Source: Nitrospiraceae bacterium
GTDB taxonomy: Bacteria; Nitrospirota; Thermodesulfovibrionia; UBA6902
Direction of reading: 5' to 3'
Assembly: GCA_003599505.1 (NCBI GenBank)
Contig: QZKO01000067.1
Coordinates: forward strand, 37,114-101,113
Length of the DNA: 64,000 bases
In this document: piece after piece, positions 16,646 through 36,400 of the stretch
How positions within the stretch are numbered: the first letter of the stretch is position 1
Layout of the letters: the number at the start of each line of letters is the position of its first letter
Made by a program: the position numbers and the translations under genes
The notes under the pieces: model-generated
The model's database searches: none
Told to the model about the DNA's origin: nothing
What the model saw: only the letters and a program-made list of their open reading frames with translations

Positions 16646-17629
16646 GTGATGTTAACCAGAATAAAGAAATATCCCGGGGCGCTTTCTCTTTTAATAATAG
16701 TTGTATGTTGCATCCTGATGTCAGGGGCTGTGTTTGTGTATGCTTCAATGGAACCCGCACCCCCTCCTCCCACGGTTTCCGATACCGCATGGTGGGTGTG
16801 GCCTCTGGGGTTATTTGTTTTCACCTTTGTGCTCGGGATTGTGGCGGTCCTCGGGGGAGTTGGAGGCGGCGTCCTGTATGTGCCTATTGTCAGCGGCTTC
16901 TTTCCTTTCCATCTTGATTTTGTGAGAGCGACAGGCCTGCTGGTTGCGTTATCCACTGCCCTGGCGGCCGGACCGGGACTTCTCAAGAGAAACCTTGCCA
17001 GCCTCAGGCTTTCCATGCCCCTGGCGCTGATCGCTTCAGCCGCTGCAATAGCAGGCGCGATGATAGGTCTTGCGCTGCCGACAAATCTGGTCCAGACACT
17101 CCTTGGAGCAACAATATTAGGGATAGTCTTCATCCTGCTCCTCGCAAAAAAATCCGACTTTCCTAATGTGCCGAAACCTGACGCGCTGTCCTCCGCATTG
17201 GGAATAATGGGAATATATCATGAGGAATCGCTCGGGAAAGACATTGAATGGCATGTCCACAGGACCCCGCAGGCCTTGTTCCTTTTTGTCGTAATAGGCC
17301 TTATGGCCGGCATGTTCGGTCTCGGCGCGGGATGGGCAAATGTACCGGTCCTGAATCTCCTCATGGGCGCGCCGTTAAAGGTATCTGTTGCCTCGAGCGT
17401 ATTTCTGCTTTCAATAACAGACACTGCCGCTGCATGGGTTTTCATAAACAAAGGCGCTGTCCTGCCCCTCATGGTAGTGCCTTCAATTGTCGGGGTCATG
17501 CTCGGCTCAAGGATAGGGGTAAGGATCCTTGCGACGGCAAAACCAAAAGCTATTAAATGGATGGTCATCGGACTACTATTTCTGTCAGGTTTGAGGTCCT
17601 TGCTGAAGGGCCTTGGAATCTGGAATTAG
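16646..17629 (+). CDS. TauE/SafE family sulfite exporter-like permease
   Basis: GVGGGVLYVP and GLGAGWANVP glycine motifs, multi-TM. Confidence 0.85.
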   Translation: MMLTRIKKYPGALSLLIIVVCCILMSGAVFVYASMEPAPPPPTVSDTAWWVWPLGLFVFTFVLGIVAVLGGVGGGVLYVPIVSGFFPFHLDFVRATGLLVALSTALAAGPGLLKRNLASLRLSMPLALIASAAAIAGAMIGLALPTNLVQTLLGATILGIVFILLLAKKSDFPNVPKPDALSSALGIMGIYHEESLGKDIEWHVHRTPQALFLFVVIGLMAGMFGLGAGWANVPVLNLLMGAPLKVSVASSVFLLSITDTAAAWVFINKGAVLPLMVVPSIVGVMLGSRIGVRILATAKPKAIKWMVIGLLFLSGLRSLLKGLGIWN

Positions 17630-17639
17630 GAGGACAAAC

Positions 17640-18059
17640 ATGAACGATAATAAACCAAAGGCGTCTGAAGAACAATTGGTGTACGCAGATCTCCTCAGTA
17701 ACGGCGCATGGACCGGGATCGGCATCCTTGTAGTGACTTTTATAATTTATGTCAGCGGACTGCTGCCGAATATCGTAGAATTCGACAAGTTACAGACCCT
17801 CTGGAAATTGCGCGCCGCCGAATACATCCATGAGACAGGCGCGCCCACGGGTTGGGGATGGACCTCCCTGCTTAATAACGGAGATATGCTTAATTTCATC
17901 GGAGTTGCCGTGCTCGCTGGAATGACAATAGTATGTTATTTGAGAGTAGTTCCGATATTTGTCAGAAAAAAGGACACCGTCTATCTCGTCATAACTTTCC
18001 TGGAGCTTTTTGTACTTTTGCTTGCAGCATCAGGAATCCTGACGGCAGGAGGTCACTAA
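17640..18059 (+). CDS. DUF1634-like membrane protein
   Basis: PTGWGW, GDMLNF motifs; usual partner of TauE; ATG 17640 after AGGAGG. Confidence 0.7.
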   Translation: MNDNKPKASEEQLVYADLLSNGAWTGIGILVVTFIIYVSGLLPNIVEFDKLQTLWKLRAAEYIHETGAPTGWGWTSLLNNGDMLNFIGVAVLAGMTIVCYLRVVPIFVRKKDTVYLVITFLELFVLLLAASGILTAGGH

Positions 18060-18060
18060 A

Positions 18061-18954
18061 ATGGCACAGTATTGTCCTACGGCCAAACTTGAAAAATTTC
18101 TTTTATCGACAGACGCCTCTGAATTCAGCGAAGGCGCCATACGGGAGGCAATAAACCTTTCGAAAACATGTTCAGGCAAACTGTTTGCCATATCCGTAAT
18201 CGAGACAAATCCCGAATATGAGACACTCGCTCCCCAGCTTGTCGAAAAGGCTGAAAAAGAGACGAGGCGGCACCTTGAAGCAGTAAAGGCGCGCGCTTTG
18301 AAGGAAGGCGTTGACTGCGAGATAATTGCGCGACAGGGAGACGAGCCTTACAGATACATTGTCGAAGAGGCTGAGAAAATTAAAGCAGAGATAATAATCA
18401 TGGGAAGGCGCGGCAGGAAAGGTCTCAAGAGGCTCATGATGGGCAGTGAGACTGCAAGGGTCATAGGACATGCCCCCTGCAAAGTGCTTGTAGTCCCGAG
18501 GGCCGCAAGAGTTGAATTCAGGAATATTCTTGTGGCAACCGATGGTTCAAAGTTTAGTGAGGCAGCCGTGTCGGAAGCAATAAGCATCGCAAAACGCTGC
18601 GATTCAAATCTGATCGTCATCTCGGTTGTTCCTTCTGAAGCAGGATCGCCTTTTGATATTGTCCATTCTGAAATGCATAAAGGGACCGTCTCTGACAAGG
18701 AATTTCAGGAAGCTGAAAAAAATGTAAAGAACGTAAAAACACTCGCTGAAGAAAACGGCGTCAGGGTCAAAGGATTCATCCTCTCAGGCAGACCCTATGA
18801 AGCAATAATCGAGACCGCAAAAGAGAATAAGGCCGACCTTATAGTAGTCGGCAGTCACGGCAGGACCGGACTTGCAAAAGTCTTTATGGGGAGCGTGACC
18901 GAAAGGGTCATCGGTCTTGCAGAATGCGCGGTACTGGTCGTGAAAGCCAAGTAA
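18061..18954 (+). CDS. Tandem-domain universal stress protein
   Basis: Two USP domains with MGRRG...MGSET and GSHGRTG...MGSV. Confidence 0.92.
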   Translation: MAQYCPTAKLEKFLLSTDASEFSEGAIREAINLSKTCSGKLFAISVIETNPEYETLAPQLVEKAEKETRRHLEAVKARALKEGVDCEIIARQGDEPYRYIVEEAEKIKAEIIIMGRRGRKGLKRLMMGSETARVIGHAPCKVLVVPRAARVEFRNILVATDGSKFSEAAVSEAISIAKRCDSNLIVISVVPSEAGSPFDIVHSEMHKGTVSDKEFQEAEKNVKNVKTLAEENGVRVKGFILSGRPYEAIIETAKENKADLIVVGSHGRTGLAKVFMGSVTERVIGLAECAVLVVKAK

Positions 18955-18962
18955 GTAATGTC

Positions 18963-20321
18963 CTAATTTTCCAGCCCGTACTTCTTCAGCTTTCTCCACA
19001 ACGACACCCTGTCGATGCCGAGAATTTCGGCTGCAACGGTCCTGTTGCCGCCAACCTCCTTCAGGACCCAACGGATATAAGACATCTCCTGCTCTTCAAG
19101 GGAGGGGATATTCCCTTCCTTTTTCCTGAAAGTCCTGATACTCAGCTCCTTCAGGTCTTCCGGAAGATGCGCCATTTCAATCGTACTGCTGTTTGAGAGG
19201 GCGACCCCTCTCTCAATAATATTTTCAAGTTCACGCACATTCCCAGGAAAATCATAATTCATCAGCACAGCCAGTACATCCTGAGATATATCACTGATAT
19301 CCTTTTTCATGAGGGCCGCGTATTTTTTGAGGAAATAGTAACTCAAGAAAGGGATGTCGTCTTTCCTTTCAGAAAGCGGCGGGATGCGGATAGAAACAAC
19401 ATTCAGCCTGAAATACAGGTCCTGCCTGAAATTGCCGCTTTTTATGGCATCGCTTATATCCCGGTTCGTCGCGGCTATGAACCTGACATCCACCTTGAGC
19501 GGCTTTGTCGCGCCGACCCGTAAAACCTCTTTTTCCTGGATGACCCTTAACAGCTTTACCTGCATGGACGGCGGCATCTCGGTTATCTCATCAAGGAGCA
19601 AGGTCCCGCCTGATGCCATTTCGATGAGCCCTTTCTTTTCCGCAGTAGCTCCGGTAAACGCGCCTTTTTCATGACCGAACAGCTCATTCGACAAAAGCTC
19701 CTTTGTAAAGGCCCCACAGTTGACGGCGAAGAACGGTCCTTCAGCCCTTGCGCTGTTGAAATGGATATAACGCGCGAACATTTCTTTTCCGGTCCCGCTT
19801 TCACCGCCCAGGAGGATATTGCAGTCAGTCGGCGCGATCTGACGGGACGTCTCAAGCAGCCTCTGCATATGAGGGTCCTGGGTGATGACCTTGACCCTGC
19901 CTTCAAATTTTTCAAGCTGCTCCCGCAGTTGCGCGTTCTCTTTTTTCAGCTTTACTTTCTCAATCGCCTCTCTGACCACCCTTCTCACCTCGTCAAGTTT
20001 GAGCGGTTTGGCGATGTAATCGTAAGCCCCCTTCTTTATTGCCTGTATGGCGGTCTGCACAGTGGCATATCCCGTTATCATGATTACCTCTGTATCAGGA
20101 TAAAGCTCCCTGCATTTTTTTAATATCTGCATACCGTCGACCTTTTCCATCTTCAGGTCCGTGAGCACGACGTCGACCCCCTGTTCTTCAATCAGCTTCA
20201 GCGCCTGCTGTCCCTTAGAGGTCCCCGTGACTGCGTATCCTTCCTTTTGCATTGCATTTACCAGACTTCTGAGCGAGATCGGCTCGTCGTCGACAATCAG
20301 TATTTTGGGCTTGTGTTCCAT
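18963..20321 (-). CDS. Sigma54-dependent response regulator (NtrC family)
   Basis: REC, GESGTGKE, GAFTGA, LLLDEI, FPGNVREL, Fis HTH; likely start ATG 20321. Confidence 0.95.
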   Translation of the reverse strand: MEHKPKILIVDDEPISLRSLVNAMQKEGYAVTGTSKGQQALKLIEEQGVDVVLTDLKMEKVDGMQILKKCRELYPDTEVIMITGYATVQTAIQAIKKGAYDYIAKPLKLDEVRRVVREAIEKVKLKKENAQLREQLEKFEGRVKVITQDPHMQRLLETSRQIAPTDCNILLGGESGTGKEMFARYIHFNSARAEGPFFAVNCGAFTKELLSNELFGHEKGAFTGATAEKKGLIEMASGGTLLLDEITEMPPSMQVKLLRVIQEKEVLRVGATKPLKVDVRFIAATNRDISDAIKSGNFRQDLYFRLNVVSIRIPPLSERKDDIPFLSYYFLKKYAALMKKDISDISQDVLAVLMNYDFPGNVRELENIIERGVALSNSSTIEMAHLPEDLKELSIRTFRKKEGNIPSLEEQEMSYIRWVLKEVGGNRTVAAEILGIDRVSLWRKLKKYGLEN

Positions 20322-20549
20322 CGTGTTTTTTTTCCTGAACCCTCGACCCCTCGACCATAGACCCTTATTCTGTAACATCTTACCATCCTTAATTGCAATT
20401 TGCAACATCACCCCCTCCAATGCAACAGTTTCGGATTCTCTCTATATTCGGTCTGTTAATTCAATCGCGATGCATTTTGCAATACTGCATAATACAAGTC
20501 CGGTTTCAGGAACATCGTGATTTCATGATGATATGTCTTTCTTTCATCC

Positions 20550-20565
20550 TGGCATGAATATTGAT
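20550..20565 (+). promoter_or_regulatory. Sigma54 -24/-12 promoter candidate
   Basis: TGGCAT-GAATA-TTGAT versus consensus TGGCAC-N5-TTGC; divergent from the activator gene. Confidence 0.65.
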
Positions 20566-20621: not shown

Positions 20622-20783
20622 ATGAAAAAGTTTCTGAAAAAATTAGAGACCGTTTATGCTGCGGCAGCGTTCGCGGAGGCCGGAGAATTCGAAACGGCAA
20701 GGGAGATGCTGAAAGAAGAAAAAAGAATAAAAAAGCGGGACATCGCAAAGCCCAGACCGCGGAAACAGTTAAGGGCGGATTGA
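20622..20783 (+). CDS. Small protein with AAAFAEAGE motif
   Basis: ATG 20622 after AGGAGG; motif repeated in the next gene. Confidence 0.75.
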   Translation: MKKFLKKLETVYAAAAFAEAGEFETAREMLKEEKRIKKRDIAKPRPRKQLRAD

Positions 20784-20786
20784 ACG

Positions 20787-21263
20787 ATGAAAAAGCGTCT
20801 GAAAGAATTGGATGATACATTTGCCGCCGCTGCCTTTGCCGAGGCAGGAGAGTTTGAGACCGCAAAACAGATACTCAAAGGCAGAAAAAAGGTATTGCTT
20901 ACGCTCACCGGCAGGGAAAGCGACCTGAAGTCATTCCGGTACGCTCTTAACATCTGCAAGCGTATAGACGCGGAGCTCGAAATACTTCATGTCAGTCGAA
21001 GCATCGGGACACTTAAACTGCTGAAGCAATTCCAGGATGAACCTGGAGCGGAAAAGACCGGTTTCAGGATAATCGAAGGCATCGGCTGTCTGAAGGAAGC
21101 CATTATCGGCCATACCGAAAAGAGCCCGGACATCCAGTTTGTCGTGGTTGAATCATCCGAAGCGCTCAATATGGACTGCACTAAAAATGAGAGGGTCCTT
21201 TCGAAGGCGTGGAAAAATTTAAAATGCCCCCTGGTGCTGGTTTCAGAGGCGTCAGGAGCATAG
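20787..21263 (+). CDS. AAAFAEAGE-motif protein with degenerate USP-like domain
   Basis: Same N-terminal motif, then VLLTLTG...YALNICKRIDAELEILHV. Confidence 0.75.
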   Translation: MKKRLKELDDTFAAAAFAEAGEFETAKQILKGRKKVLLTLTGRESDLKSFRYALNICKRIDAELEILHVSRSIGTLKLLKQFQDEPGAEKTGFRIIEGIGCLKEAIIGHTEKSPDIQFVVVESSEALNMDCTKNERVLSKAWKNLKCPLVLVSEASGA

Positions 21264-21297: not shown

Positions 21298-21549
21298 ATG
21301 TCACACAGCAATGTCAAAAAGAAGCCCGTCGGGAAGATGCTGCTGATGGGCGTCATATCGGCGGCGCTTTACGTGCTGCTGCTGTTAAAGCAGGACGTTA
21401 TTATCAGTTATATCGGTCAGGGCGGAGTGTATGCAATCTTGCCGATAATAACGGCATTCATATTTTCTTATGTTCACGGGTCATTCACAGGCGATTTCTG
21501 GACGGTCATGGGAATAGAGGCCGCGAAGAAGAAGAAGGAGGTAAAATAA
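21298..21549 (+). CDS. Small 2-TM membrane protein
   Basis: RBS; two hydrophobic helices; FSYVHGSFTGDFW. Confidence 0.75.
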   Translation: MSHSNVKKKPVGKMLLMGVISAALYVLLLLKQDVIISYIGQGGVYAILPIITAFIFSYVHGSFTGDFWTVMGIEAAKKKKEVK

Positions 21550-21550
21550 C

Positions 21551-22639
21551 ATGCAGGATATAGCTCAGGCAGCGACAAATTTTGTAGATCTTGAGTCATG
21601 GAACCTTATTTACCTCTTTCTCGTCGGCTTTGTCGGCGGCCTTGTAAGCGGATTCATAGGTTCAGGCGGGGCCTTCGTGCTCACACCGGCAATGATGAGC
21701 ATGGGCGTTCCCGGACTTGTTGCAGTCGCAAGCAATATGTGCCACAAGTTCCCCAAGGCGCTTATAGGCTCCCTCAAACGCGCAAAGTACGGACAGGTTG
21801 ATGTTAAACTGGGGATCGTTCTCGGCATATCCGCGGAGGCCGGAGTCCTTTATGGAGCGCATATTCAGGAGGGTATAAAGAAGTCATTCGGTGAAGCGGG
21901 TTCAAACCTGTACGTCAGCGCGGCTTTTGTAATAATCCTTGCCATAGTAGGCGGTTTTGTTCTGCTGGATGCCTGGAAGACTTACAGATCCGGCAACGCA
22001 CAGGAAGAAGAAAAGGCGACAAAACTTGCAAAGTGGGTGCAGTCAATCAACATCCCCGGCACGATGGTTTATTTCAAGTGCCTGAACGCCCGGATATCCG
22101 TCCTGTTCACCATACCTCTGGGCTTTGCGACAGGCATGCTGGCTGCAACAATAGCTGTGGGCGGCTTCATCGGCGTTCCTGCGATGATTTACGTTCTCGG
22201 CGCCCCCAGCCTCATGGCTTCAGCTACCGAGCTCGTAATCGCCTTTGTAATGGGTCTCGGTGGTTCGTTTAAGTACGCCCTGAGCGGGTTGGTCGATATC
22301 CGTCTTGCAATGATCATACTTGCAGGCTCGCTCTTCGGGATTCAGTTAGGCGCAATAGGAACGACCTATGTAAAACCGTTCATGATAAAAGTGGTCATGG
22401 GCGTAATCATGGTTATCGTCCTTTTCAGCCGCGCCCTGATGGTGCCGGTGTACATGTCCCAGCTTCATCTTATCGATGAAATCAGCGCCGGTTCGGCAGC
22501 GCTGCTGAAAAATGTAAGTTTCGGTATAATGATCTTCGCCCTTGCATTGGGAGCGTTTATAGTCCTGAGAGCCATGTGGCAGGGACGCAGAGCGGAGCAG
22601 TCGGCCGCGCGCGCGGCGTTTGAACATGGTGAAGCTTAA
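21551..22639 (+). CDS. TauE/SafE family permease (second paralogue)
   Basis: GFIGSGGAFVLTP, AVGGFIGVP motifs. Confidence 0.85.
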   Translation: MQDIAQAATNFVDLESWNLIYLFLVGFVGGLVSGFIGSGGAFVLTPAMMSMGVPGLVAVASNMCHKFPKALIGSLKRAKYGQVDVKLGIVLGISAEAGVLYGAHIQEGIKKSFGEAGSNLYVSAAFVIILAIVGGFVLLDAWKTYRSGNAQEEEKATKLAKWVQSINIPGTMVYFKCLNARISVLFTIPLGFATGMLAATIAVGGFIGVPAMIYVLGAPSLMASATELVIAFVMGLGGSFKYALSGLVDIRLAMIILAGSLFGIQLGAIGTTYVKPFMIKVVMGVIMVIVLFSRALMVPVYMSQLHLIDEISAGSAALLKNVSFGIMIFALALGAFIVLRAMWQGRRAEQSAARAAFEHGEA

Positions 22640-22641
22640 CT

Positions 22642-23496
22642 ATGGGATTGTACCGAAAAATACTCGTGGCCTTTGACGGCTCGGAATCAAGCGTGAATGC
22701 CCTTCATCAGGCATTCACGCTTGCCAATGACGAGAAGAGCTGGATAACCGTGGCAACGATAGTGCCTTCTTACGAAGGCGACCTGGACCTTACCGGTGTA
22801 AAGGACATACACAAGACACTGCGTCACACCGGAGAGGAAATGCTTTTTAGGGCAAAAGCGATTGCCGAAAAGGAGCGGGCGTTTATAAAAACCCTTCTCG
22901 AAGAAGGTCCGCCCTATGAAAAACTGGTGGACATCGCAGAAGCGGAAAATGCAGGGATCATCGTTATGGGAAGACAGGGGAAGTCACGTCTTGAGCGGGC
23001 TTTTGTGGGAAGCGTCACGGCCCGTGTTATCGGTCACGGCACAAGAGACGTCCTGGCCGTGCCTGAGAACGAGTCCCTCGGATGGAAGAAGATCCTTCTC
23101 GCGACCGACGGATCGAAGTATAGTGACGCCGCTGCCCAAAAGGCGATAGAGTTCGCGAAATCGTATGGCGGCGAGCTCAGGGCCATTTCAGTGGTCGACG
23201 TGCCGACTGAATTTTATGCGGAGGCCCCGAAAGCGGTAGAAGACCTGATCAGAAAAGCAAAAGAGTTTGTCGCGTCAATAAAGAAGACGGCTGAAGCCTC
23301 AGGTATTGTGACCGAAACCTTTATCGGCGAAGGCGAAGCATATCAGGTAATAACCGATTTTGCAAAAAAAGAAAATGCGAGTGTGATCCTCATGGGAAGT
23401 CACGGACGGACCGGTTTCAGGAAGGTCATCATGGGAAGCGTGACTGAAAAAGTTATCGGTTACGCCCCATGCCCTGTTCTGATTGTTAAATCCTGA
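22642..23496 (+). CDS. Tandem-domain universal stress protein
   Basis: Two USP domains. Confidence 0.92.
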   Translation: MGLYRKILVAFDGSESSVNALHQAFTLANDEKSWITVATIVPSYEGDLDLTGVKDIHKTLRHTGEEMLFRAKAIAEKERAFIKTLLEEGPPYEKLVDIAEAENAGIIVMGRQGKSRLERAFVGSVTARVIGHGTRDVLAVPENESLGWKKILLATDGSKYSDAAAQKAIEFAKSYGGELRAISVVDVPTEFYAEAPKAVEDLIRKAKEFVASIKKTAEASGIVTETFIGEGEAYQVITDFAKKENASVILMGSHGRTGFRKVIMGSVTEKVIGYAPCPVLIVKS

Positions 23497-23559: not shown

Positions 23560-25269
23560 ATGCAATTAAAAATATGGCATAAGATGATCATCGGCATCTC
23601 CATCCCCGCGCTTATCACGTTAACAGGAGGTTTTTTCACGTACGCGTATATCAATGACGTGAAACTCAGGCATGGTTTTGTCGAGATAGCGGATGACCTG
23701 AGGGATCGGGTGCTTGAAGTCAGACGAAGCGAGAAAAATTTCGTGCTCCATAAAACAGAGGAGTATTACAACTACTGCAACGACGGGATAAATATACTTA
23801 ATCGCTCTCTGAACGGTATATCGCCGGAAATCGCTGAACAGGTCGGGAAGAATGATTTTTCATTCCTTCGTGATTCCCTTAAGGCATATTCAGGACTTCT
23901 GATCGACCTGCTGGGGCATTACCGGCAGGAAGATATATTTATTGAAAAAGTAAGGGATGAAGGAAGAAAGCTGGAGGCTTTCGTCAAAACGGAAAAACAC
24001 GCCCCGGAGCTCTCGATAAACTTTGTCCTGGATCTCAGACGCCTTGAAAAGGACTATATGCTGTTCCGAGACACGGCGTCCTTTAACAGGATGAATGATG
24101 CGCTTTCAGAAGTCAACAGCCTCGTACCTTCTTGCCCGGACTGCGCGCGGTATCCGGAAGCGATCAATGATCTCATTTCAGTTTACAACAAAATAAACGC
24201 TATGGAGAACGACCTGCTGATTGCCGGCAGGGGGATCGAAGACACGACAAACAGGATAGCGCAGAGCGAACGGCAAAAGGTAAATGCCTTTTTCACATCC
24301 ACGCAGCGGTTTTTGATGATCGTCCTTATTCTGTTTTGCACACTGATCCCTCTGTTCGTATACCAGACCGCCTCGTATGTCGTAGCGCCGATAAAACGGC
24401 TCGCTGATATCACACGGAAAATTTCAGAAGGCGATATGACATTGAGGGCGCCGATCAAAGAACATGATGAAACGTACACCCTTGCGGTATCGTTCAACAG
24501 GATGCTGGACCATCTGCAGCTCACCCGCAGTTCTCTGGAAAAAAGCCTTGAGCTCCTCCATGAAAAGCACGTGGAAGTGGAGAAGCGCGCGTCCCTCGGG
24601 TTCCTTGTTTCGGGGGTCGCCCACGAGCTTAACAACCCTCTCAACAATATCTCCCTCACAGCGGAAACAATGAAGGAAGACCTTCAGGAGCTTTCCACTG
24701 AAGAACTCAGGGAGCATATCCAGGATATTATCTCACAGAGCGAGCGCGCCAAACACATCATCGAAGAGCTCCTTGACTTTGCGGGCACGCGGAAATCTAC
24801 CGCCATGGAGAAGCTGGATATCATCAATGTGCTTGCGGAATCCATCAACCTTGTCGCGAACCAGTTGAAGGTCTCGCACATACATCTGAAAAAAGACATT
24901 CATAAAACCCCCGTCTTCATAAAAGGCAACCAGAGCAAGCTCGAAGAAATATTTGTCAACATCATGGTAAACGCCATCCACGCCATGAAAGAATCCGGGA
25001 CTCTTTCCATCTGCGCCAAACCGGACGAAAAAGAGAAATCCATCACCGTTGAAATAAGCGATACGGGATGCGGGATACCGAAGAAATATCTAAATAATAT
25101 TTTTGAGCCTTTTTACACCACCAAGCAGTCGGGCCTGGGGACCGGACTCGGTCTGGCCGTAACCCGCAGTCTTGTTGAAAAGCATTCCGGCGATATCGAT
25201 GTCAGGAGCAAAGTCGGCGAAGGCACGACCTTTACGGTAAGATTTCCGCTATACACGGAGACAGACTGA
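23560..25269 (+). CDS. HAMP-domain sensor histidine kinase
   Basis: Two TMs, HAMP, AHELNNPL H-box, N/G1/F/G2 boxes. Confidence 0.95.
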   Translation: MQLKIWHKMIIGISIPALITLTGGFFTYAYINDVKLRHGFVEIADDLRDRVLEVRRSEKNFVLHKTEEYYNYCNDGINILNRSLNGISPEIAEQVGKNDFSFLRDSLKAYSGLLIDLLGHYRQEDIFIEKVRDEGRKLEAFVKTEKHAPELSINFVLDLRRLEKDYMLFRDTASFNRMNDALSEVNSLVPSCPDCARYPEAINDLISVYNKINAMENDLLIAGRGIEDTTNRIAQSERQKVNAFFTSTQRFLMIVLILFCTLIPLFVYQTASYVVAPIKRLADITRKISEGDMTLRAPIKEHDETYTLAVSFNRMLDHLQLTRSSLEKSLELLHEKHVEVEKRASLGFLVSGVAHELNNPLNNISLTAETMKEDLQELSTEELREHIQDIISQSERAKHIIEELLDFAGTRKSTAMEKLDIINVLAESINLVANQLKVSHIHLKKDIHKTPVFIKGNQSKLEEIFVNIMVNAIHAMKESGTLSICAKPDEKEKSITVEISDTGCGIPKKYLNNIFEPFYTTKQSGLGTGLGLAVTRSLVEKHSGDIDVRSKVGEGTTFTVRFPLYTETD

Positions 25270-25274
25270 AATCC

Positions 25275-25664
25275 ATGGAAAACAAACTCCGCATCATGAT
25301 CGTTGATGATGAGCCTATCGTCGGAAAAAGACTCAAGCGGCTGTTTGAAAAAGAAGGCTTTGAGGTCGGGACCTGTACCAGGGGTTCTGTTGCAATTGAA
25401 GAGCTGAAAAGAAAACATTTCGACATTGTGATTACTGATCTCATGATGGGAAATGTTGACGGCATGAAGATTCTGGAATTTGTCAAAACGAACCACCATG
25501 TCACCCGGGTCATAATCATCACCGGTTTCGGCAAGAAGGAGACTGCTGCCGAGGCCTTCAGCAAAGGCGCCTTCGCTTTCATTATCAAGCCCTTTAAAAT
25601 TGATGAGCTCAGGGAAGTTGTCAGGAAGGCCTGCGCGGGATTAAAGGCCAAGAGCGCCTCCTGA
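25275..25664 (+). CDS. Single-domain response regulator
   Basis: IVDD, TDLMM, ITG, IKP. Confidence 0.93.
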   Translation: MENKLRIMIVDDEPIVGKRLKRLFEKEGFEVGTCTRGSVAIEELKRKHFDIVITDLMMGNVDGMKILEFVKTNHHVTRVIIITGFGKKETAAEAFSKGAFAFIIKPFKIDELREVVRKACAGLKAKSAS

Positions 25665-25688: not shown

Positions 25689-27695
25689 TTACGGCAGGAC
25701 CTTGTCCACAATCTCTTCGATCCTGCTTGCGAACAGTATCTCGATCCCTTCCCTGATCTCCCCGGGAATACCGTCAGATTCTATTTTATTCTTGAGCGGC
25801 AGGATTACGGTCTTTACCTTCGCCCTTTTTGCGGCAAGTATTTTTTCCCTGACGCCGCCGACAGGCAGGATACGTCCGCTCAGGGTAAGCTCTCCGGTAA
25901 CCGCCACATCTCTCCTTGCGGGCCTGCCGGTAAGGAGGGAAACAAGGGCCAATGCAATGGTCGTCCCCGCTGAAGGCCCGTCCTTCGGTATGGCGCCTGC
26001 AGGGACGTGTATGTGGACGTCATGGCCTTCAAAAAAGTTTTCGGGGATGCCGAATGCCGGCGCGTTGCTGCGGATGTAACTAAGCGCAGTCTGCGCCGAT
26101 TCACGCATCACGTCTCCGAGGGAGCCGGTCAGGATTATCTGCTGCCTCCCCTTCATTGTCGCGGCCTCAATGAATATGATATCGCCTCCCACCTCCGTCC
26201 ATACAAGCCCTGTTGTGACGCCCGGCCTGTTCTTCCCTTCCGCGATTTCAAAGTAATATCTTCGCGGCCCCAGAAATTTTTCAATTGCAGCGGGAGTTAT
26301 CATCACTGCTTCGGCTTTCCCGTGCTCCTGCACATAATCCTTTGCGATCTTCCGGCATATCGCCGAGATCTCCCTGTTTAAATTCCGTATACCCGCCTCA
26401 TATGTATATTCCTGGATAATCCTGTAAATTGCGTCTTCGGTAAATCCGGGCGGGTTATCGGTCAGGCCCGTTTCCCTTATCTGCCGGGGGACCAGAAACC
26501 GGGACGCGATGTTCACCTTCTCTTCTTCCGTGTAGCCGGAGAAACGGATTACCTCCATCCGGTCTCTCAGGACATCGGAAATATTTTCGGCAATGTTGGC
26601 AGTAATAATAAACATAACGTTTGAAAGGTCAAAAGGGACGTCAAGATAATGGTCTATGAAGTTCGCGTTCTGCTCGGGGTCCAGCGCCTCAAGCAGGGCC
26701 GCGGCTGGGTCTCCCTTTGAATCATTCCCTATCTTGTCCAGCTCGTCAAGTATTATCAGTGGATTGGACGAGCCCGCCCTGCGGATTTCCTCGATGATCC
26801 TCCCGGGCATGGCCCCCGCGTAAGTCCTTCTGTGCCCCCTGATCTCGGCCTCGTCCTTTACTCCTCCCAGTGAGATGCGTACGAACTTCCTTCCGAGGGC
26901 GCGCGCGACAGACCGTCCGAGAGAGGTCTTGCCTGTTCCCGGAGGGCCTGAAAAGCAGAGCACCGGTCCTTTTGTTTCCCGCTTAAAACTCTTTCTGTCC
27001 AGCGCCTGTTTCACCACTGATTTAACGTCATCGAGACTGAACGGCTTCGCGATATAATGAAAGGCCCCGTGTTTCATGGATTCCACGGCGCTGTCCACTG
27101 TTGCGTATCCCGTAATCATGACCACCGCTGTATCAGGATGCCTCGTCTTCGTCCTTTTCAGTATCTCCATGCCGTCTATATGCTCCATTTTAAGGTCGGT
27201 GAGTATGACGTCAAAGCCGGATGCTTCAATCCTCTTCATGGCTTCAACACCGTCCGGAGCAGTGACCACTGTGTAATTCTCCTTTGTCAGCGCATGGGTC
27301 AGATTCCTCCTGACTATCTCCTCATCATCCACTACCAGTATCCTCGGCCTCCTGTTCATCTTCAGATTTTTGACCGCGAGATATTCCAGTATCCTTTCCT
27401 TGATCTTCTGTAATCCGTAGTGGTCTTCATCGAGGGTCCCTGCCGCCCTTTCAAGGTCCAGGTTGTCGTCGGTTTTTCTGTTCCACGGGAGGGAGACAAG
27501 GTATTCAATGTATGTAACCCCGATTGTGTATTCAGCGGTAGCGGGGCCCATCTTCTGCAGCAGGCCGAGCTCCCTGACTGCTATCTGCTCCGCGGGTGAA
27601 GGCATCCGGGCGTTCCTGATCTTTTCCTGCAGCTCTTCCAACACCGCGTCAGTCTTTGTGTCTTCCGGCTCCTCTGACTTCCCGAAGAATTTCAT
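25689..27695 (-). CDS. lon: Lon protease lacking the N-domain, with an internal REC domain
   Basis: GPPGTGKT, ILDELDK, KDGPSAG and REKIL catalytic dyad; REC at about 26994-27350; ATG 27695 after GGAGG. Confidence 0.92.
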   Translation of the reverse strand: MKFFGKSEEPEDTKTDAVLEELQEKIRNARMPSPAEQIAVRELGLLQKMGPATAEYTIGVTYIEYLVSLPWNRKTDDNLDLERAAGTLDEDHYGLQKIKERILEYLAVKNLKMNRRPRILVVDDEEIVRRNLTHALTKENYTVVTAPDGVEAMKRIEASGFDVILTDLKMEHIDGMEILKRTKTRHPDTAVVMITGYATVDSAVESMKHGAFHYIAKPFSLDDVKSVVKQALDRKSFKRETKGPVLCFSGPPGTGKTSLGRSVARALGRKFVRISLGGVKDEAEIRGHRRTYAGAMPGRIIEEIRRAGSSNPLIILDELDKIGNDSKGDPAAALLEALDPEQNANFIDHYLDVPFDLSNVMFIITANIAENISDVLRDRMEVIRFSGYTEEEKVNIASRFLVPRQIRETGLTDNPPGFTEDAIYRIIQEYTYEAGIRNLNREISAICRKIAKDYVQEHGKAEAVMITPAAIEKFLGPRRYYFEIAEGKNRPGVTTGLVWTEVGGDIIFIEAATMKGRQQIILTGSLGDVMRESAQTALSYIRSNAPAFGIPENFFEGHDVHIHVPAGAIPKDGPSAGTTIALALVSLLTGRPARRDVAVTGELTLSGRILPVGGVREKILAAKRAKVKTVILPLKNKIESDGIPGEIREGIEILFASRIEEIVDKVLP

Positions 27696-27893
27696 GTAAA
27701 CCAAGCCTCCGGCGGTCCGCTGAAGAACCGTTCAAGGGGGATGCCGCCCTCTCCTATAAGTAAAACTGAAGCATCGGGATATTTCATCCGGAACCTGTTA
27801 ATGCCTGCTCTGCCCCTGACAGTTCCGCTCTTTACTTCAAGCGCCCATGTTGAAGCCCCCTTGGTCACGATAAAGTTTACTTCAAAGCCAACA

Positions 27894-30258: not shown

Positions 30259-31242
30259 GGGTCAGGCTTGCTTTCATGCATTTAATTTCCTTATTACCCT
30301 TTGAACTATTTTCCCTTCTTCCCTGTTCTCAGAGGTCTTGCTCCATCGCGATAATACCGACAAATCCCTTTTTAATTCACTCTGCAATTCCACCAGCCGA
30401 TATCCCGATTCCCTGCATGCCCCGGCAAATATGACCCTTGCCGACTTTACTGCGTTCCCCCTTCCGCGTGACTTTATTTCTTCTTGTGAAACGCCGGTTT
30501 CCTCTAAGACTGCTGCAAATACCTCTTTAAGGGGCGGCTTCCTGACCCGTTTGTCCAGATTATCCACTTCCTCCGCTACTTTCTCTATAAACTTTTCATC
30601 TCCAATAATCTGCTGACCCACGGCCTTGTATACTGACCCGTCACTTTTTATCCCGATTGCAACATCCACAAAATCCCTGTACAGCTTCCGCGCCTCCGAC
30701 GGCCTCTCTGAAAACATTCGCAATACCTTGTCCGTTTCAACAACCCCTTTATTACCGTCCAGGTATTCACGGTGGCTGCTCCATTTGTACTCCTGCGGCT
30801 TCTCTACCAGCTTCGCCCGCACCGGATTTAAGTGTATGTATCGGACCAGGCTTAACAGATATATGTCCCTGTCACAAAGATATGCCTTGTATCTCCCCTG
30901 AAAAAGATGCCCTGTTTTCTTATATCTTTGATTAAAGTACCGCGTATACGTAAAGCTGATTACCTGCATTATCCTCGATATCGGCGTCTTCGGTGTCTCC
31001 ACCAACAAATGCACGTGATTTGTCATCAGCGTATAGGCATATATTATAAACCCATGCCGCCTCCTGTATCTTTCTACAAGTTCAAGATACTTGAATCTGT
31101 CTTTTTTATCTTTAAATATCGCCTGTCGCTGATTGCCACGCACTATTACGTGATAAAATGCTCCGGGATACTCTATTCGCGGTGGTCTCGCCATTGTGAA
31201 CTAATTTTAGCTGTCTCATCTGCACGTTTGCAAGCCTGACCC
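30259..31242 (-). mobile_element. RAYT-like element with terminal inverted repeats
   Basis: GGGTCAGGCTTGC (30259-30271) / GCAAGCCTGACCC (31230-31242), extendable to about 22 bp with RTGCA; encloses only the transposase. Confidence 0.8.
30274..31194 (-). CDS. Y1 HUH transposase (REP-associated/IS200-like) with C-terminal HTH extension
   Basis: YHVIVRGN, MTNHVHLL (HUH), GHLFQGRY, RYIHLNPVRA, YKWSS. Confidence 0.93.
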   Translation of the reverse strand: MARPPRIEYPGAFYHVIVRGNQRQAIFKDKKDRFKYLELVERYRRRHGFIIYAYTLMTNHVHLLVETPKTPISRIMQVISFTYTRYFNQRYKKTGHLFQGRYKAYLCDRDIYLLSLVRYIHLNPVRAKLVEKPQEYKWSSHREYLDGNKGVVETDKVLRMFSERPSEARKLYRDFVDVAIGIKSDGSVYKAVGQQIIGDEKFIEKVAEEVDNLDKRVRKPPLKEVFAAVLEETGVSQEEIKSRGRGNAVKSARVIFAGACRESGYRLVELQSELKRDLSVLSRWSKTSENREEGKIVQRVIRKLNA

Positions 31243-31757: not shown

Positions 31758-32252
31758 TCATTTTGCCGGCGTTCTGAACCTGAAAGGCGTGTTGCTGACT
31801 GAAGTTCTGCCAGTCGCAATGCCGATTGTATAAATAACCGTCTCGTCAAAGGTACTCCAGTCACTAACAGACGACCCTCTACGTTTCCGGACTGACCAGT
31901 AGTAAAGTGTATCGTATTCGAGCGGCCTCTCAAGCTTATGAAAGTTATCTTTTAAATTCTCAACATAATATACTTCGTTACCCCAGCTAATACTACTCTC
32001 TGGATAAGCAGATGCTGCTTTTACTTCTTCTATATTTGGCTTCCATATAGAAAAATCAAAGGTAGTACTATCTTCCACTGCTGCTTCCCATTTGAAGTCA
32101 GGTTGAAGTGAATCAACATTTACTGGTGTCATTTGAGGTAACAATAAACTATTTTTAGGGGCAATTGGCTTTATTCCGCTATAATGACGCATTGCAGGCA
32201 TACAACTTGCGACAAGAGTAAAGAAGAAACAAAGAATAATCACTTTTTTCAT
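31758..32252 (-). CDS. Hypothetical lipoprotein (cassette cargo)
   Basis: GGGAGG RBS; LVASC lipobox. Confidence 0.75.
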   Translation of the reverse strand: MKKVIILCFFFTLVASCMPAMRHYSGIKPIAPKNSLLLPQMTPVNVDSLQPDFKWEAAVEDSTTFDFSIWKPNIEEVKAASAYPESSISWGNEVYYVENLKDNFHKLERPLEYDTLYYWSVRKRRGSSVSDWSTFDETVIYTIGIATGRTSVSNTPFRFRTPAK

Positions 32253-32302
32253 TTTGTTTCCCTCCCTTCAGTTACCATTAAAAGTTTTGAGAAATCGAAG
32301 CA

Positions 32303-33349
32303 TTATTTGTTTTCTTTAATATTAATTATTTTGTATTCATTATTAGCTCTGACGTTATAGACACATGCAATACCTTCTATTGCCCGCGCCCAACATCTTC
32401 TATTAGTATCTACTTTGAATGATTCAATAACTTCGCTGTTGGTTGCGTTTGATATTTTAATAAGTCGGATATCTTCTGCTTTAAAAATAAAATGTATCTG
32501 CCTTCTCGCCGACAGCTTAACAGGTTGATGATTGTCCAAATAAAAGTAAATGTCATTATTCAAAGAATTATCAACCAATAAAGAAAATTGATCCTTATGC
32601 GGATTAGCATCCGTAATCTCATAAACCAAGTCAAATACAACTTCTAATAATGCAAGAATTCTGTAAAGTATTTTGGCAAGTATTGGAATACGCGGAAGTA
32701 AGCTATATATCCCATTGAGAAAATTGTGATAAAAAATCCCTTTCCCTTCTATGAAGTGCATACCGTTAGACTTTGTTGGTATTTTTTGAATAACCATATC
32801 CGCGACTGGTCCTAATGAGCCTGATGTTGCTTCAACATAGCCTATTGGTATATCTTCCGTCTCTATTAAAGGTGAAGGATTAAAATCATCAAGTGTAAAA
32901 AATGGTGGCCGTAAAAAGAAGAACCGTTTATTCTTTATTTCTAATTGATCAGATATATTGTCAAAATCGATTTGTTCTCCTTGCAATTCTGTTTTTCCCG
33001 CTTTTGCGGCGTACTCAACTGGAGGTGGTGAGCTTTTGGATGAAATTAGAGAAGGGAGGAACTTAATTGTTGAATAACCAACAATTCCAATAATTCCAAA
33101 TACAATCAGCACAAAAACAACCATAGAAGAACTCATTATAATAGTTTCTACTTTTTCCCATCTTTTTCTTTTTCGTTTAAGTTGCTCAGATTGTTCAAAA
33201 GCTTTTATTGTAGTTTCACGTTGATTCTCAATAGTTTCATTTTGACACATATCTTTTAAAGAACATACTAAGCATTTGTCGCTTTTGTATCTTTCATAAA
33301 ACCGACTATAGCAATCTGGCTTTTCCTGAGTTTCTTTCTCATGACTCAT
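32303..33349 (-). CDS. Hypothetical membrane-anchored protein
   Basis: GGAGG RBS immediately after ATTATCTG boundary; N-terminal Cys cluster, one clear TM. Confidence 0.75.
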   Translation of the reverse strand: MSHEKETQEKPDCYSRFYERYKSDKCLVCSLKDMCQNETIENQRETTIKAFEQSEQLKRKRKRWEKVETIIMSSSMVVFVLIVFGIIGIVGYSTIKFLPSLISSKSSPPPVEYAAKAGKTELQGEQIDFDNISDQLEIKNKRFFFLRPPFFTLDDFNPSPLIETEDIPIGYVEATSGSLGPVADMVIQKIPTKSNGMHFIEGKGIFYHNFLNGIYSLLPRIPILAKILYRILALLEVVFDLVYEITDANPHKDQFSLLVDNSLNNDIYFYLDNHQPVKLSARRQIHFIFKAEDIRLIKISNATNSEVIESFKVDTNRRCWARAIEGIACVYNVRANNEYKIINIKENK

Positions 33350-33418
33350 AATGCACTACCTCCATACAGATAATGCGGCGCTGCTCAACTGCTGCATTCT
33401 CCCCGTAGCGAAGCGGAG

Positions 33419-33552
33419 GGGAGAACGATAAGCTCACTGACGAGTGCCAAGAAGCACGTCAAAGAGCATGAAACCGATTTGATAATCATAAGTCATAATC
33501 AGTCTGTAAAAGCGTCCTGTGGCACTCGTTCACGTGCAGCGTCAGGTTATCT
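33419..33552 (-). other. Integron attC recombination site (134 bp)
   Basis: Minus strand R'' AGATAAC, 5 bp, L'' GCTGCAC, inner stem AACGAGTGCCA/TGGCACTCGTC, L' GTGAGC, 5 bp, R' GTTCTCC; starts 5 bp after a stop codon. Confidence 0.8.
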
Positions 33553-33556
33553 GCTG

Positions 33557-34543
33557 TTACTTATATCCTAACTTTACTTCTGTCCCGTCTGGCAAAATTA
33601 CTTTGCCCTTCCCACGCAGATAAACATAGCCGTATGATTCAATAATTCCGAAATTAAGCCTATCGGATTTATCACCTTCGTTAAGAAAATTATAATTTCC
33701 TATTCTTACACTACCGTATATTTCATGAATACTACCATTACCCAAAGGAGCGGTTATATCTGCCTGAGATTCAGGGACTTCTTTTTGGTATATGATGTAT
33801 ATTGGTTTATTAAAAGCATCGAACCTATCAAACATTGCTCCTAATAACCGAGGGTTCATACCAGCCTGCTTTATGAGTTCCTTAACTGATTCACGTGATG
33901 CTAATGTAACATTATCTACAGATTTTGAATTATTTACTCTGGAAACACAGTTAACCAAATTAAAACAGGCAGCCATCATTTCACTTGATAGAGGGATTTC
34001 TTTTATGAAGAATCTGTTTCCTAAACCATTTTTTTTAATATCTTCAATAGTAGTTGGGGGATTTGCCTCGGTCTCTAATTTATTTATAGACTCATTTGGA
34101 GAGATGGCCGGGTTTGTTTGAGCAAGCTTTTCGAATAAAATGACGTCATATTTGAGCATTGCTTTTCTCGTTTTTATATCCACAGACTTTGACTCTTTAT
34201 CAGATGTGATCAATTTTACTTTCCACCCTTCGCCTCTAAAGTCATTTGTGATTGTAGTTGCAATTATACTTGTACCCCGCGATTCTTTTATGGGATCAAC
34301 AAGTAAACCATATTTTTTTGCGTCACTATATTTCACAAAAAAACTATTATCTGGATATTCAACTAATGTTAATTCTATCCCTTTAATAATCCAGGTTCCA
34401 TCATTCGCCACTGTTGAGCTCATAATGCCTTCACTGATCGTACCAATAAATTTATTCTCAGTTTGTTCTGTTTGTTCAGCATAACCAGCAGTACTTAAAA
34501 CGATTATTAAAACAACTATCAAATCTATTGTTTTTTGTATCAT
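33557..34543 (-). CDS. Secreted hypothetical protein (cassette cargo)
   Basis: AAGGAG RBS, signal peptide ending AGYA; ends directly at attC. Confidence 0.75.
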   Translation of the reverse strand: MIQKTIDLIVVLIIVLSTAGYAEQTEQTENKFIGTISEGIMSSTVANDGTWIIKGIELTLVEYPDNSFFVKYSDAKKYGLLVDPIKESRGTSIIATTITNDFRGEGWKVKLITSDKESKSVDIKTRKAMLKYDVILFEKLAQTNPAISPNESINKLETEANPPTTIEDIKKNGLGNRFFIKEIPLSSEMMAACFNLVNCVSRVNNSKSVDNVTLASRESVKELIKQAGMNPRLLGAMFDRFDAFNKPIYIIYQKEVPESQADITAPLGNGSIHEIYGSVRIGNYNFLNEGDKSDRLNFGIIESYGYVYLRGKGKVILPDGTEVKLGYK

Positions 34544-34788
34544 ATTAATATTCTCCTTTTCCTTTTAGAAAACAAATCCCAAATAAAATCATCGTGCTAA
34601 TGATACCAACTACGCTTAGACTCAAAGGCATTGGGCCGCCTCCTTTTGAACATCCTGAAGAATATAGATAATTTTACTATTAACACTGTTCCTATTAAAG
34701 AACAAATACCTCCACAAATTTTTGCAAATAATGACATTCCTATCCCCCCTTTCTTTGTCAGCAATGGGCAACTCGTTTATAAAAGGTT

Positions 34789-35268
34789 TTATTTATTCTC
34801 TTTTCTAAAAATATAGTCATCGGCAATACCTGTCTTCTCATTAACTAAAACCAATAACATATCAGTTTTAGTCTCCATATCTTGTTTACCAATAATTGGA
34901 ACAGTTACCATTTGTCCTTCCATCTTGGTAAAGGTATAACCATAAATCCGATGGTCTTCTGTAATTTTATGCTTTGATGAAAACAAGTCAAAAGAGGGGT
35001 ATACAAACTGAGGGGCCATCATGCCAACCATAGCTCCTTGTTTTGATGATGCTGCTTCCTCGCCTTGTTTTTGTATAACATTAGGAATACCAAACCACTG
35101 GATAATATCTTCTTTCGTGGTTTTGCCGGGTTGAATCATTTTAACCATATCTTCTTTTATTGGTGTTCCCATTTTGAACGACTGCCCCATAAACATACAT
35201 CCTGCTAAAAACAGGATGGTAACGAAAATGCACAAAAGAAATCCGTTAATCTTTGATTCTCTTTTCAT
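34789..35268 (-). CDS. Hypothetical lipoprotein with SmpA/BamE-like motif
   Basis: FLAGC lipobox; IQPGKTTKEDIIQWFGIP. Confidence 0.7.
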   Translation of the reverse strand: MKRESKINGFLLCIFVTILFLAGCMFMGQSFKMGTPIKEDMVKMIQPGKTTKEDIIQWFGIPNVIQKQGEEAASSKQGAMVGMMAPQFVYPSFDLFSSKHKITEDHRIYGYTFTKMEGQMVTVPIIGKQDMETKTDMLLVLVNEKTGIADDYIFRKENK

Positions 35269-35712
35269 AACATATTCTCCTTTCTTGCATACATCAAACC
35301 TAATAAAGTACGTCTTGGCACAGCACTAAAATTTTCTTTGCATGAATTACATATAACATCTTGCATAGCTGTTCCCATAACAGCCCTCCTTTTCATGCCC
35401 TCAGTGAGCAGATAACGAGTCTGTAGAATAAGTCTCCGGCCCGAAAAATCAATTTGATTTTGGGAATCATAAACCCTTGCTTCACCCAAGATCGTTCAAT
35501 ACAGTGCATTCTGAGCATCCGTTTTTTTGCTCAACCTCTCGCAATTTTTCAGAGAGGCCTTTTTCTACAGCTTCAACGATATCTATACTACGCAGTAGGA
35601 ATAGTAAAAAGAACCCGGAATTCGCTGATAGAAAATTATAAACTTCCCTGTGGCCGTTTGTCACGAAAAAAATACAAAAGGAGGTAACCGCTCAGTCACG
35701 TGGGGGACAATA

Positions 35713-35801
35713 CCCCCCCCTTTTGGCAAAGGGGGGCGAGGAGGGATTTTTTCAATACATTCTATAAAATCTCCCCTAACCCCTCTTTTTCAAAGAGGGG
35801 G
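35713..35801. repeat. Inverted dyad of CCCCCCTTT-N-AAAGGGGGG hairpins (REP/MITE-like)
   Basis: CCCCCCCCTTTTGGCAAAGGGGGG..GGGATTT / AAATCTCCCCTAACCCCTCTTTTTCAAAGAGGGGG. Confidence 0.75.
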
Positions 35802-35875
35802 ACCTTCACACACACCCTCCACTGAAGGGTTACAGTTGCGCGGGCGCGCAATTAGACGGATCTTCTACGGCGGCT

Positions 35876-36400
35876 TTATTCTTCAAGCTGGACCCTTATA
35901 TACGCCTTCTTTCTCAGCTCCCCGATATGCTCAACGATCTTCTCTTTTAACTCCGTGTCAATAAGGCGGTCTTCTATTTTGTCTTTGACTTCATAGAATT
36001 CCTCCTCACCGAACTCTTGCCTGTTCCGGGTGTAATATGATTCGATCTCTTCAATCGGTATATGGATAAACGCCCTTATGCTCCTCTCGATGTATTCTTT
36101 CACAAGCGCGGCGTCATTTCTCCTTTCCGCGATGTCCCGTGTTCCTCCGGGCATCAGTCTTTTTGCCTGGTCCAGAAGCAGCGCCCTGTCTATCATGCCG
36201 TTCAGGACTTTTTCCCCGGTTACTCCGGGATCGGACTTTCTCGCGGCCTGAAGCTCCTCATCGTATTCGCTCAGCAGGATCAGCCGGTTATTCACTATCG
36301 CTACTATCCGGTCCAGGACCTCAGCGTAGCTATTAGCGGTCAGCAACCAACTGACAGCAATCAGCAACAGAATCAAAATTAATATTTTCAGGTTCTTCAT
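35876..36400 (-). CDS. SurA N-terminal-domain protein
   Basis: EVLDRIVAIVNNRLILLSE; C-terminal LRKKAYI; signal peptide overlaps heptamer run at 36328-36367. Confidence 0.8.
   Translation of the reverse strand: MKNLKILILILLLIAVSWLLTANSYAEVLDRIVAIVNNRLILLSEYDEELQAARKSDPGVTGEKVLNGMIDRALLLDQAKRLMPGGTRDIAERRNDAALVKEYIERSIRAFIHIPIEEIESYYTRNRQEFGEEEFYEVKDKIEDRLIDTELKEKIVEHIGELRKKAYIRVQLEE

Follow-up and report, generated by a model that had tools for sequence, protein, structure and literature searches.

A 64,000-nucleotide (nt) stretch of contig QZKO01000067.1 from a Nitrospiraceae bacterium (the window, within which all positions are counted) encodes REC-Lon, a Lon protease that carries a two-component receiver domain inside its chain and lacks the N-terminal substrate domain of its relatives. 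We interpret REC-Lon as a specialised LonA paralogue, an orthologue of the DVU3303 type of Desulfovibrio vulgaris, that has lost the N-domain, gained a receiver and would be gated by phosphorylation on a branched signalling pathway, and we place the probability of this interpretation at roughly 0.6. Phosphorylation-gated proteolysis is, on sequence grounds, the best-supported reading of a protein family with a fixed architecture, conserved catalytic and phospho-acceptor residues, a single origin, conserved gene neighbours and a receiver that covaries with that of an adjacent sigma54-dependent regulator. An earlier sequence-only reading of this DNA had recognised the same fusion and proposed a protease switched directly by the neighbouring kinase.

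The open reading frame (ORF) of REC-Lon spans 25689..27704 on the minus strand in the ORF list of the window. The ATG at 27695 is the likely start, because homologues begin MKFF... and a GGAGG sequence lies approximately 10 nt upstream, and from this codon the span 25689..27695 encodes 668 amino acids (aa) followed by a stop codon. The gene and its parts are listed below with the evidence for each.

25689..27695, minus strand: REC-Lon coding sequence (ORF, translation, Pfam, NCBIfam, AlphaFold2 model, Foldseek)
27642..27695, minus strand: N-terminal tail, residues 1-18, MKFFGKSEE..., conserved and predicted to be disordered (AlphaFold2 predicted local distance difference test, pLDDT; alignment)
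27360..27641, minus strand: retained pre-ATPase helical region of LonA, residues 19-112, with the ILEYLAV helix at its end (alignment to structures, AlphaFold2)
26973..27359, minus strand: inserted NtrC-type receiver, residues 113-241, with an extended alpha-5 and phospho-acceptor D167 (PF00072, 102 bits)
26301..26972, minus strand: Lon AAA+ module with Walker A GPPGTGKT at 250-257, Walker B D317-E318, pore-loop Y292 and lid 408-458 (Pfam, structure alignment, homologue alignment)
25692..26300, minus strand: Lon S16 protease domain with the S575/K618 dyad (PF05362, 274 bits)

Pfam located Response_reg at residues 119-228, AAA at 246-386, Lon_lid at 408-458 and Lon_C at 466-667, with the receiver scoring 102.3 bits against a gathering threshold of 30.2. 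REC-Lon also passed the NCBIfam 'lon' equivalog TIGR00763 (737.5 bits, cutoff 608) and did not reach the E. coli-type Lon model NF008053 (599 vs cutoff 891). Searches of the PDB with phmmer matched residues 10-103 of Bacillus subtilis Lon (3m6a) to REC-Lon 19-112 and residues 104-529 to REC-Lon 239-666, and since 3m6a aligns on either side, the receiver is a clean insertion of approximately 126 aa between the ILEYLAV helix and the beta-1/Walker-A strand. The complete receiver that the sequence-only reading had placed between that helix and Walker A was therefore confirmed by both Pfam and the PDB alignment; its further statement that the insert lies within the AAA+ module is true of structure-based boundaries, which count the ILEYLAV helix, and untrue of Pfam boundaries, by which the receiver sits just upstream of the core. 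Neither PF00158 (sigma54 interaction) nor HTH_8 had a Pfam match in REC-Lon, and the likeness to NtrC is confined to the receiver. The first ~240 residues of LonA had no counterpart in REC-Lon in either the Pfam N-domain search or the alignments to LonA structures, which begin at about residue 251 of full-length Lon (residues 251-347 of Lon 7p6u match the helical region 19-112, phmmer against the PDB). The N-domain reported as missing from the sequence alone is thus indeed absent, with only the head deleted and approximately 95 residues of the LonA pre-ATPase helical region retained.

Conservation was assessed in an alignment (A1) of 40 homologues that includes Nitrospirota, Syntrophobacterales, Desulfobulbaceae and Desulfomonilaceae. 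Invariant positions comprise receiver and protease residues alike (D123, D124, D167, T195, Y214, K217, Walker A, Y292, D317-E318 and K618), with K217-P218 of the receiver AKP motif invariant or nearly so and S575, which sits in PKDGPSAG, conserved in at least 90%. All of the motifs first picked out by eye (VVDD, TDLKM, ITGY, AKP, Walker A/B and the Ser-Lys dyad) are present and invariant or nearly so across this set. The joint conservation of the phospho-acceptor site and of the full ATPase and protease machinery argues that both halves of the protein are functional. The junctions are equally strict, with 10 residues from the helix to receiver beta-1 and 30 from KPx to GPPGTGKT in 129 of 129 members, lengths that were not forced by the search pattern, which permitted 5-30 and 15-45 residues respectively.

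The AlphaFold2 model of REC-Lon (pLDDT 83, predicted template modelling score 0.70) resembled LonA structures in Foldseek, with template modelling scores of up to 0.90. Helices of the retained region were predicted at 17-29, 33-48, 54-68, 81-91 and 96-113, the last of these being the ILEYLAV helix, after which four residues lead to receiver strand beta-1. The receiver itself was modelled as a (beta-alpha)5 unit at 118-242 (pLDDT mostly 83-92), in which alpha-5 forms one long helix (221-242) that ends 2 residues before AAA+ beta-1. The invariant short junctions and the continuous alpha-5 are consistent with rigid coupling of the receiver to the motor and argue for a mechanical link rather than a loose tether. 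Residues 1-14 had pLDDT values below 50, and within this N-terminal tail F4 was conserved in at least 90% of the 40 homologues and a tail motif of the MKFFKKSEE type was found in 113 of 129 members; the conserved tail could be a degron, a pore-engaging autoinhibitory segment or a docking peptide. Pfam, AlphaFold2 and Foldseek agree on the receiver-in-Lon architecture, which is the outcome anticipated by the sequence-only reading when it named domain and structure prediction as a check.

REC-Lons form a conserved family. In a search of 5.8 billion proteins, clusters with 66-86% identity to REC-Lon numbered more than 120; every one combined PF00072 with PF05362, and those that carried an organism name were metagenome-assembled genomes (MAGs) of Nitrospirota or Thermodesulfovibrionales, labelled 'endopeptidase La' or 'ATP-dependent Lon protease'. 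In species-representative genomes, the same junction was found, among the matches listed, in Syntrophobacteraceae, Desulfobulbaceae, Desulfomonilaceae, Desulfocapsaceae and Desulfonema, as well as in Desulfocurvus, other Desulfovibrionaceae and a Pseudomonadota-labelled MAG. A REC-Lon is also encoded by an isolate in culture, Desulfobacter vibrioformis DSM 8776, and the gene is present on contigs of 0.6-3.6 Mb. No public sequencing runs containing the REC-Lon gene were listed.

In a maximum-likelihood tree of the AAA+/protease core (164 rows), all 22 of the 22 REC-Lons fell on one side of a branch within canonical LonA (Shimodaira-Hasegawa-like approximate likelihood ratio test, 99), and their nearest relatives were full-length LonAs of 721-818 aa. 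This single clade implies that the receiver was gained once. In the MAG JACRGY01, a REC-Lon (L001) occurs beside a canonical LonA that retains the N-domain (L206), and because of this co-occurrence REC-Lon is taken to be an extra, specialised paralogue in that genome. Proteins of 889-1379 aa (P0121, P0122, P0126-P0130, P0133 and P0137) were considered as larger sensor-Lon fusions and rejected; they contain two to three tandem Lon-type AAA+/lid modules, a single protease domain and no receiver. The summed modules of such tandem-AAA+ Lons gave scores above those of true REC-Lons in the representative search.

Among canonical LonAs (MEROPS S16; for example the Lons of B. subtilis, E. coli and Meiothermus taiwanensis), representative members are 50-58% identical to REC-Lon over the AAA+/protease region, and REC-Lon shares their Walker motifs, pore loop, lid, Ser-Lys dyad and fold. 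Where canonical LonA has an N-terminal substrate-recognition domain of ~240 residues, REC-Lon has none and instead carries a 126-residue receiver, and its Walker A reads GPPGTGKT, whereas two aligned canonical LonAs and L206 have GPPGVGKT. A laboratory truncation of M. taiwanensis LonA named AAAP (MtaLonA 242-793, PMC8087443) starts near the same boundary, REC-Lon residue 19 corresponding to residue 251 of Thermus Lon, but unlike REC-Lon it has no receiver. AAAP retains ATPase and peptidase activity and degrades casein, a disordered substrate, yet does not degrade a damaged folded protein (PMC8087443).

The family already has a described member. In D. vulgaris, DVU3305 (a sigma54 regulator), DVU3304 (a kinase) and DVU3303 make up a three-component general-stress system that regulates DVU3298-3302, encoding membrane and Usp-type proteins; DVU3303 was described as a response regulator 'containing a lon protease', and its activation by phosphorylation was hypothesised (Rajeev et al. 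2011, PMC3333781). DVU3303 had first been annotated 'ATP-dependent protease La, truncation', and orthologues adjoining the regulator have been noted for Thermodesulfovibrio, Thioalkalivibrio and Dechloromonas. The DVU3303-3305 genes are detrimental in chlorate, with pairwise cofitness above 0.9, a phenotype linked to DVU3299, an anion transporter among the targets of the system (Trotter et al. 2023, PMC10102598). The novelty implied by the sequence-only reading was consequently overstated, the family having been described in 2011 and studied genetically in 2023. Its remark that no biochemical characterisation was known is borne out by full-text literature searches, which returned no biochemical or structural study of the REC-Lon family.

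The match between REC-Lon and DVU3303 rests on the Desulfovibrionaceae relatives L074 and L155, which have the same junction and the same neighbours, together with the published descriptions. Both proteins combine a receiver with a Lon protease beside a histidine kinase and a sigma54 regulator; the regulator in D. vulgaris acts on a divergently transcribed operon whose products are membrane and Usp-type proteins, an anion transporter included, and the window holds the same gene set, as follows.

16646..18954, plus strand: second module of TauE, membrane protein and tandem Usp (Pfam)
18963..20420, minus strand: sigma54-dependent response regulator, REC-AAA+-HTH_8, DVU3305-type partner (Pfam, NCBIfam); the true start is likely the ATG at 20321
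20622..20783, plus strand: 53-aa peptide with the AAAAFAEAGEFETA motif (ORF; no Pfam family)
20787..21263, plus strand: Usp-like protein with the AAAAFAEAGEFETA motif (ORF)
21298..21549, plus strand: small membrane protein (Pfam scan, synteny)
21551..22639, plus strand: TauE-family anion exporter (Pfam)
22642..23496, plus strand: tandem Usp protein (Pfam)
23560..25269, plus strand: membrane sensor histidine kinase, HAMP-HisKA-HATPase_c, candidate phosphodonor (Pfam)
25275..25664, plus strand: single-domain receiver, active site complete, encoded 5 bp downstream of the kinase gene (PF00072, 105.7 bits)

The small membrane protein, TauE exporter and tandem Usp genes (21298..23496) constitute a putative sigma54 regulon. 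The arrangement differs from that of D. vulgaris in that DVU3303 opens the kinase/regulator operon, whereas REC-Lon is its own transcription unit, convergent with the kinase and lone-receiver genes. Beyond the DVU3303 system, the window genome also has the lone receiver, the second TauE/Usp module and ORFs with an N-terminal FAEAGE motif. The lone receiver had no counterpart in the other REC-Lon loci examined; possibly it is a third branch or a phosphate sink, which would make the pathway here three-way branched.

Synteny was examined in 24 REC-Lon loci, with neighbours counted within 10 kb. A homologous histidine kinase and sigma54 regulator accompanied REC-Lon in 20 of the 24, TauE in 17 and the small membrane protein in 15, and the four loci devoid of kinase and regulator comprised two short contigs and one Nitrospirota lineage (L001 and L002). 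In that lineage REC-Lon is flanked on one side by a PIN-domain gene and on the other by an ABC-F ATPase, with dnaX/ybaB and a Schlafen-like helicase close by. L060 and L063 each have a single REC-Lon gene with two or three separate modules around it, made up of kinase, sigma54 regulator, TauE and Usp genes, although no regulator gene is in view for the outer kinases of L063; several kinases may thus converge on one protease.

The receivers of REC-Lon and of the neighbouring sigma54 regulator (18963..20420) share 51% identity, and the solved structures closest to the REC-Lon receiver are NtrC1 receivers (phmmer against the PDB). Across genomes, the receivers of REC-Lons and sigma54 regulators are nearly as alike between the two families as within each. 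Whole-domain similarity was not raised within genomes (0.460 for the same and 0.460 for different genomes, 7 genomes), and a test on these 7 genomes confined to specificity columns (alpha-1 and beta5-alpha5) was suggestive (p = 0.07). With 20 genomes, identity at the specificity columns was 0.544 for same-genome and 0.489 for cross-genome pairs, compared with 0.482 and 0.465 over the rest of the domain, and the excess at the specificity columns had a permutation p of 0.006 (n = 20), a signal that emerged only with 20 genomes and the restricted columns. Alpha-1 of the regulator receiver covaries with alpha-1 of the REC-Lon receiver. This covariation supports a single kinase for the two proteins, and we conclude that REC-Lon probably shares its kinase with the sigma54 regulator and that the same kinase perhaps also serves the lone receiver (25275..25664) in the window genome. 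Sharing would make the pathway branched, with no private kinase-protease pair; the earlier link to the neighbouring kinase has indirect support from synteny and covariation.

Two groups of known systems resemble REC-Lon in part. In NtrC, NtrC1 and DctD a receiver controls an AAA+ ring in cis; in NtrC1 and DctD, it is receiver pairing that controls ring assembly, with the unphosphorylated receiver dimer as the regulatory state. The REC-Lon receiver is of this NtrC type, and its long alpha-5, which in the model leads straight into the AAA+ domain, recalls NtrC1 and DctD. Unlike that family, REC-Lon has an AAA+ module of the Lon clade, an internal receiver, a predicted proteolytic output and no DNA-binding domain. 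Receiver phosphorylation also governs regulated proteolysis in trans through CpdR and RssB with ClpXP, but these are separate proteins that bind ClpX or substrates, whereas the receiver of REC-Lon is covalently built in. Against CpdR and RssB models REC-Lon gave weak, generic receiver matches (79.6 vs cutoff 180 and 78.2 vs 700, respectively).

How phosphate is passed on, which way the switch works and what the clients are we infer as follows. The membrane kinase (23560..25269) would phosphorylate both the sigma54 regulator (18963..20420) and REC-Lon, the latter at D167, and phosphorylation would alter the pairing of receivers and the orientation of the long alpha-5, which is predicted to run directly into strand beta-1 beside the nucleotide site. 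Ring assembly or ATPase activity would then be switched on, much as AAA+ rings of the NtrC family are by their receivers. Once active, REC-Lon would act on a restricted range of clients, unstructured or tagged and tied to the TauE/Usp stress regulon, and not on damaged proteins generally, the narrow range being expected because the N-domain is missing, as in the engineered AAAP (PMC8087443).

The same architecture and conservation are compatible with either polarity, and the unphosphorylated receiver could instead allow or stimulate proteolysis, with the kinase shutting REC-Lon off and clients being degraded when there is no signal. Such inverse logic has precedents in CpdR, which primes ClpXP when unphosphorylated, and in the regulatory receiver dimers of NtrC1 and DctD mentioned above; it predicts opposite effects of kinase and protease mutants, however, whereas cofitness in D. 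vulgaris exceeds 0.9, and we regard it as unlikely, allowing that possible operon polarity weakens the argument. A little less likely again is that the receiver is a phosphate sink or kinase-docking module that tunes the sigma54 regulator, with the protease being constitutive or turning over itself or the kinase complex. It is common for branched pathways to include sink receivers, the lone receiver after the kinase in the window indicates that the pathway tolerates several acceptors, and L060 and L063 have a single REC-Lon among two or three kinase/regulator modules. A sink, however, needs neither junctions fixed in every member nor conserved Walker A/B, pore loop and Ser-Lys dyad, and loss of a sink should raise signalling, opposite to the effect of kinase or regulator mutants, whereas the observed cofitness is positive (with the same caveat of polarity). 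The positive cofitness, which possible polarity renders weak evidence, favours activation by phosphorylation over both alternatives. That the fusion might be an assembly or gene-calling artefact, or a decaying Lon pseudogene, recalls the early 'truncation' label of DVU3303, and an assembly chimera had been named at the outset as a finding that would undo the case; we rejected both and give them virtually no weight, given more than 120 clusters sharing the architecture, a cultured isolate, contigs of up to 3.6 Mb, monophyly, conserved active sites and the absence of frame disruptions.

Several points weigh against gating by phosphorylation on a branched pathway. DVU3303 is the first gene of its operon, and polar transposon insertions could alone yield the high cofitness; literature searches found no published activity, phosphotransfer or client for any member of the family; and in the Nitrospirae MAGs L001 and L002 the REC-Lon, 71% identical, is unlinked from any kinase. 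The specificity columns were picked from general knowledge of two-component systems, relatedness was controlled solely against the rest of the receiver domain, which is an imperfect control, and the AlphaFold2 model is of a monomer, so that the placement of six receivers on the Lon ring lies outside it. In the regions preceding REC-Lon, the TauE operons and the regulator, matches to sigma54 promoters were no more frequent than expected by chance, with none convincing for REC-Lon, and the promoter regions of the module had no common words of 10 or more bases that could represent a shared operator.

The first two ORFs of the putative sigma54 operon (20622..21263) have AAAAFAEAGEFETA in common, and the N-terminal motif takes the form ...AA(A/V)(A/T)FAEAGE(F)xTA(R/K)... 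in small ORFs and Usp-like proteins. A FAEAGE profile matched ORFs beside TauE/Usp operons in the window and at L006, L060, L062 and L063, and such ORFs near REC-Lon always head TauE/Usp operons. The motif was found in Nitrospirota loci and in L006, with no profile match in the other fetched loci, including ~45 canonical-Lon loci, and neither the 53-aa peptide nor the motif belongs to a Pfam family. L003 and L005, two Desulfobacterota loci in which the cluster is complete, likewise lack the motif, and a universal partner or degron was rejected on these grounds. The FAEAGE motif may mark clients or partners in some lineages.

A bolder and distinctly tentative proposal, which we rate well below the interpretation given at the outset, is that REC-Lon is the first AAA+ protease switched in cis by two-component phosphotransfer. 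Here the sigma54 activator, which turns on the TauE/Usp/small-protein operon, and REC-Lon would both be phosphorylated by one membrane kinase; receivers that pair upon phosphorylation would take over the scaffolding role of the missing LonA N-domains and close the active ring; and the clients would come from the same regulon, possibly the FAEAGE peptides, the Usp-like proteins or the regulator itself. If this were true, one signal would set the timing of both transcription and proteolysis for a stress module.

Other features of the window were observed near these genes. Upstream of the FAEAGE/TauE operon the sole sigma54 -24/-12-like site is TGGCATGAATATTGAT (20550-20565, plus strand), which has GA for GC at -12, and sites as good as this were no commoner than chance in the window. 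Approximately 200 bp upstream of the REC-Lon start, the segment 27894-27926 contains two overlapping repeats, one inverted, perfect and 10 bp long (AATACTCAAT/ATTGAGTATT), the other direct, also of 10 bp (TACTCAATGA) and spaced by 21 bp; these repeats are a candidate operator and do not occur in the other promoter regions of the module. An ORF at 30274-31194 (minus strand) encodes an IS200-like Y1 transposase domain with a DnaA_C-type helix-turn-helix, and the region 32000-36000 has a G+C content of 0.36-0.37, compared with ~0.50 elsewhere, and may be acquired DNA.

Overall, the window gene adds a member to a family known since 2011, and the probable sharing of its kinase with the sigma54 regulator, as judged from the receiver sequences, widens the earlier picture of a protease answering to one neighbouring kinase. 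AAA+ proteases are usually regulated via adaptors, degrons or expression level, and to our knowledge a receiver hard-wired into the motor is a control principle known for no Lon, Clp or FtsH protease. The strict junctions and the naturally N-domain-less core make REC-Lon a tractable model for how a signal could enter the Lon ring, and the existing genetics of D. vulgaris renders the hypothesis directly testable. Ultimately, if the interpretation is true, REC-Lon would provide a direct and reversible link from an environmental sensor to protein degradation, in a family that is widespread in sulfate reducers and Nitrospirota, organisms important in sulfur cycling and corrosion.

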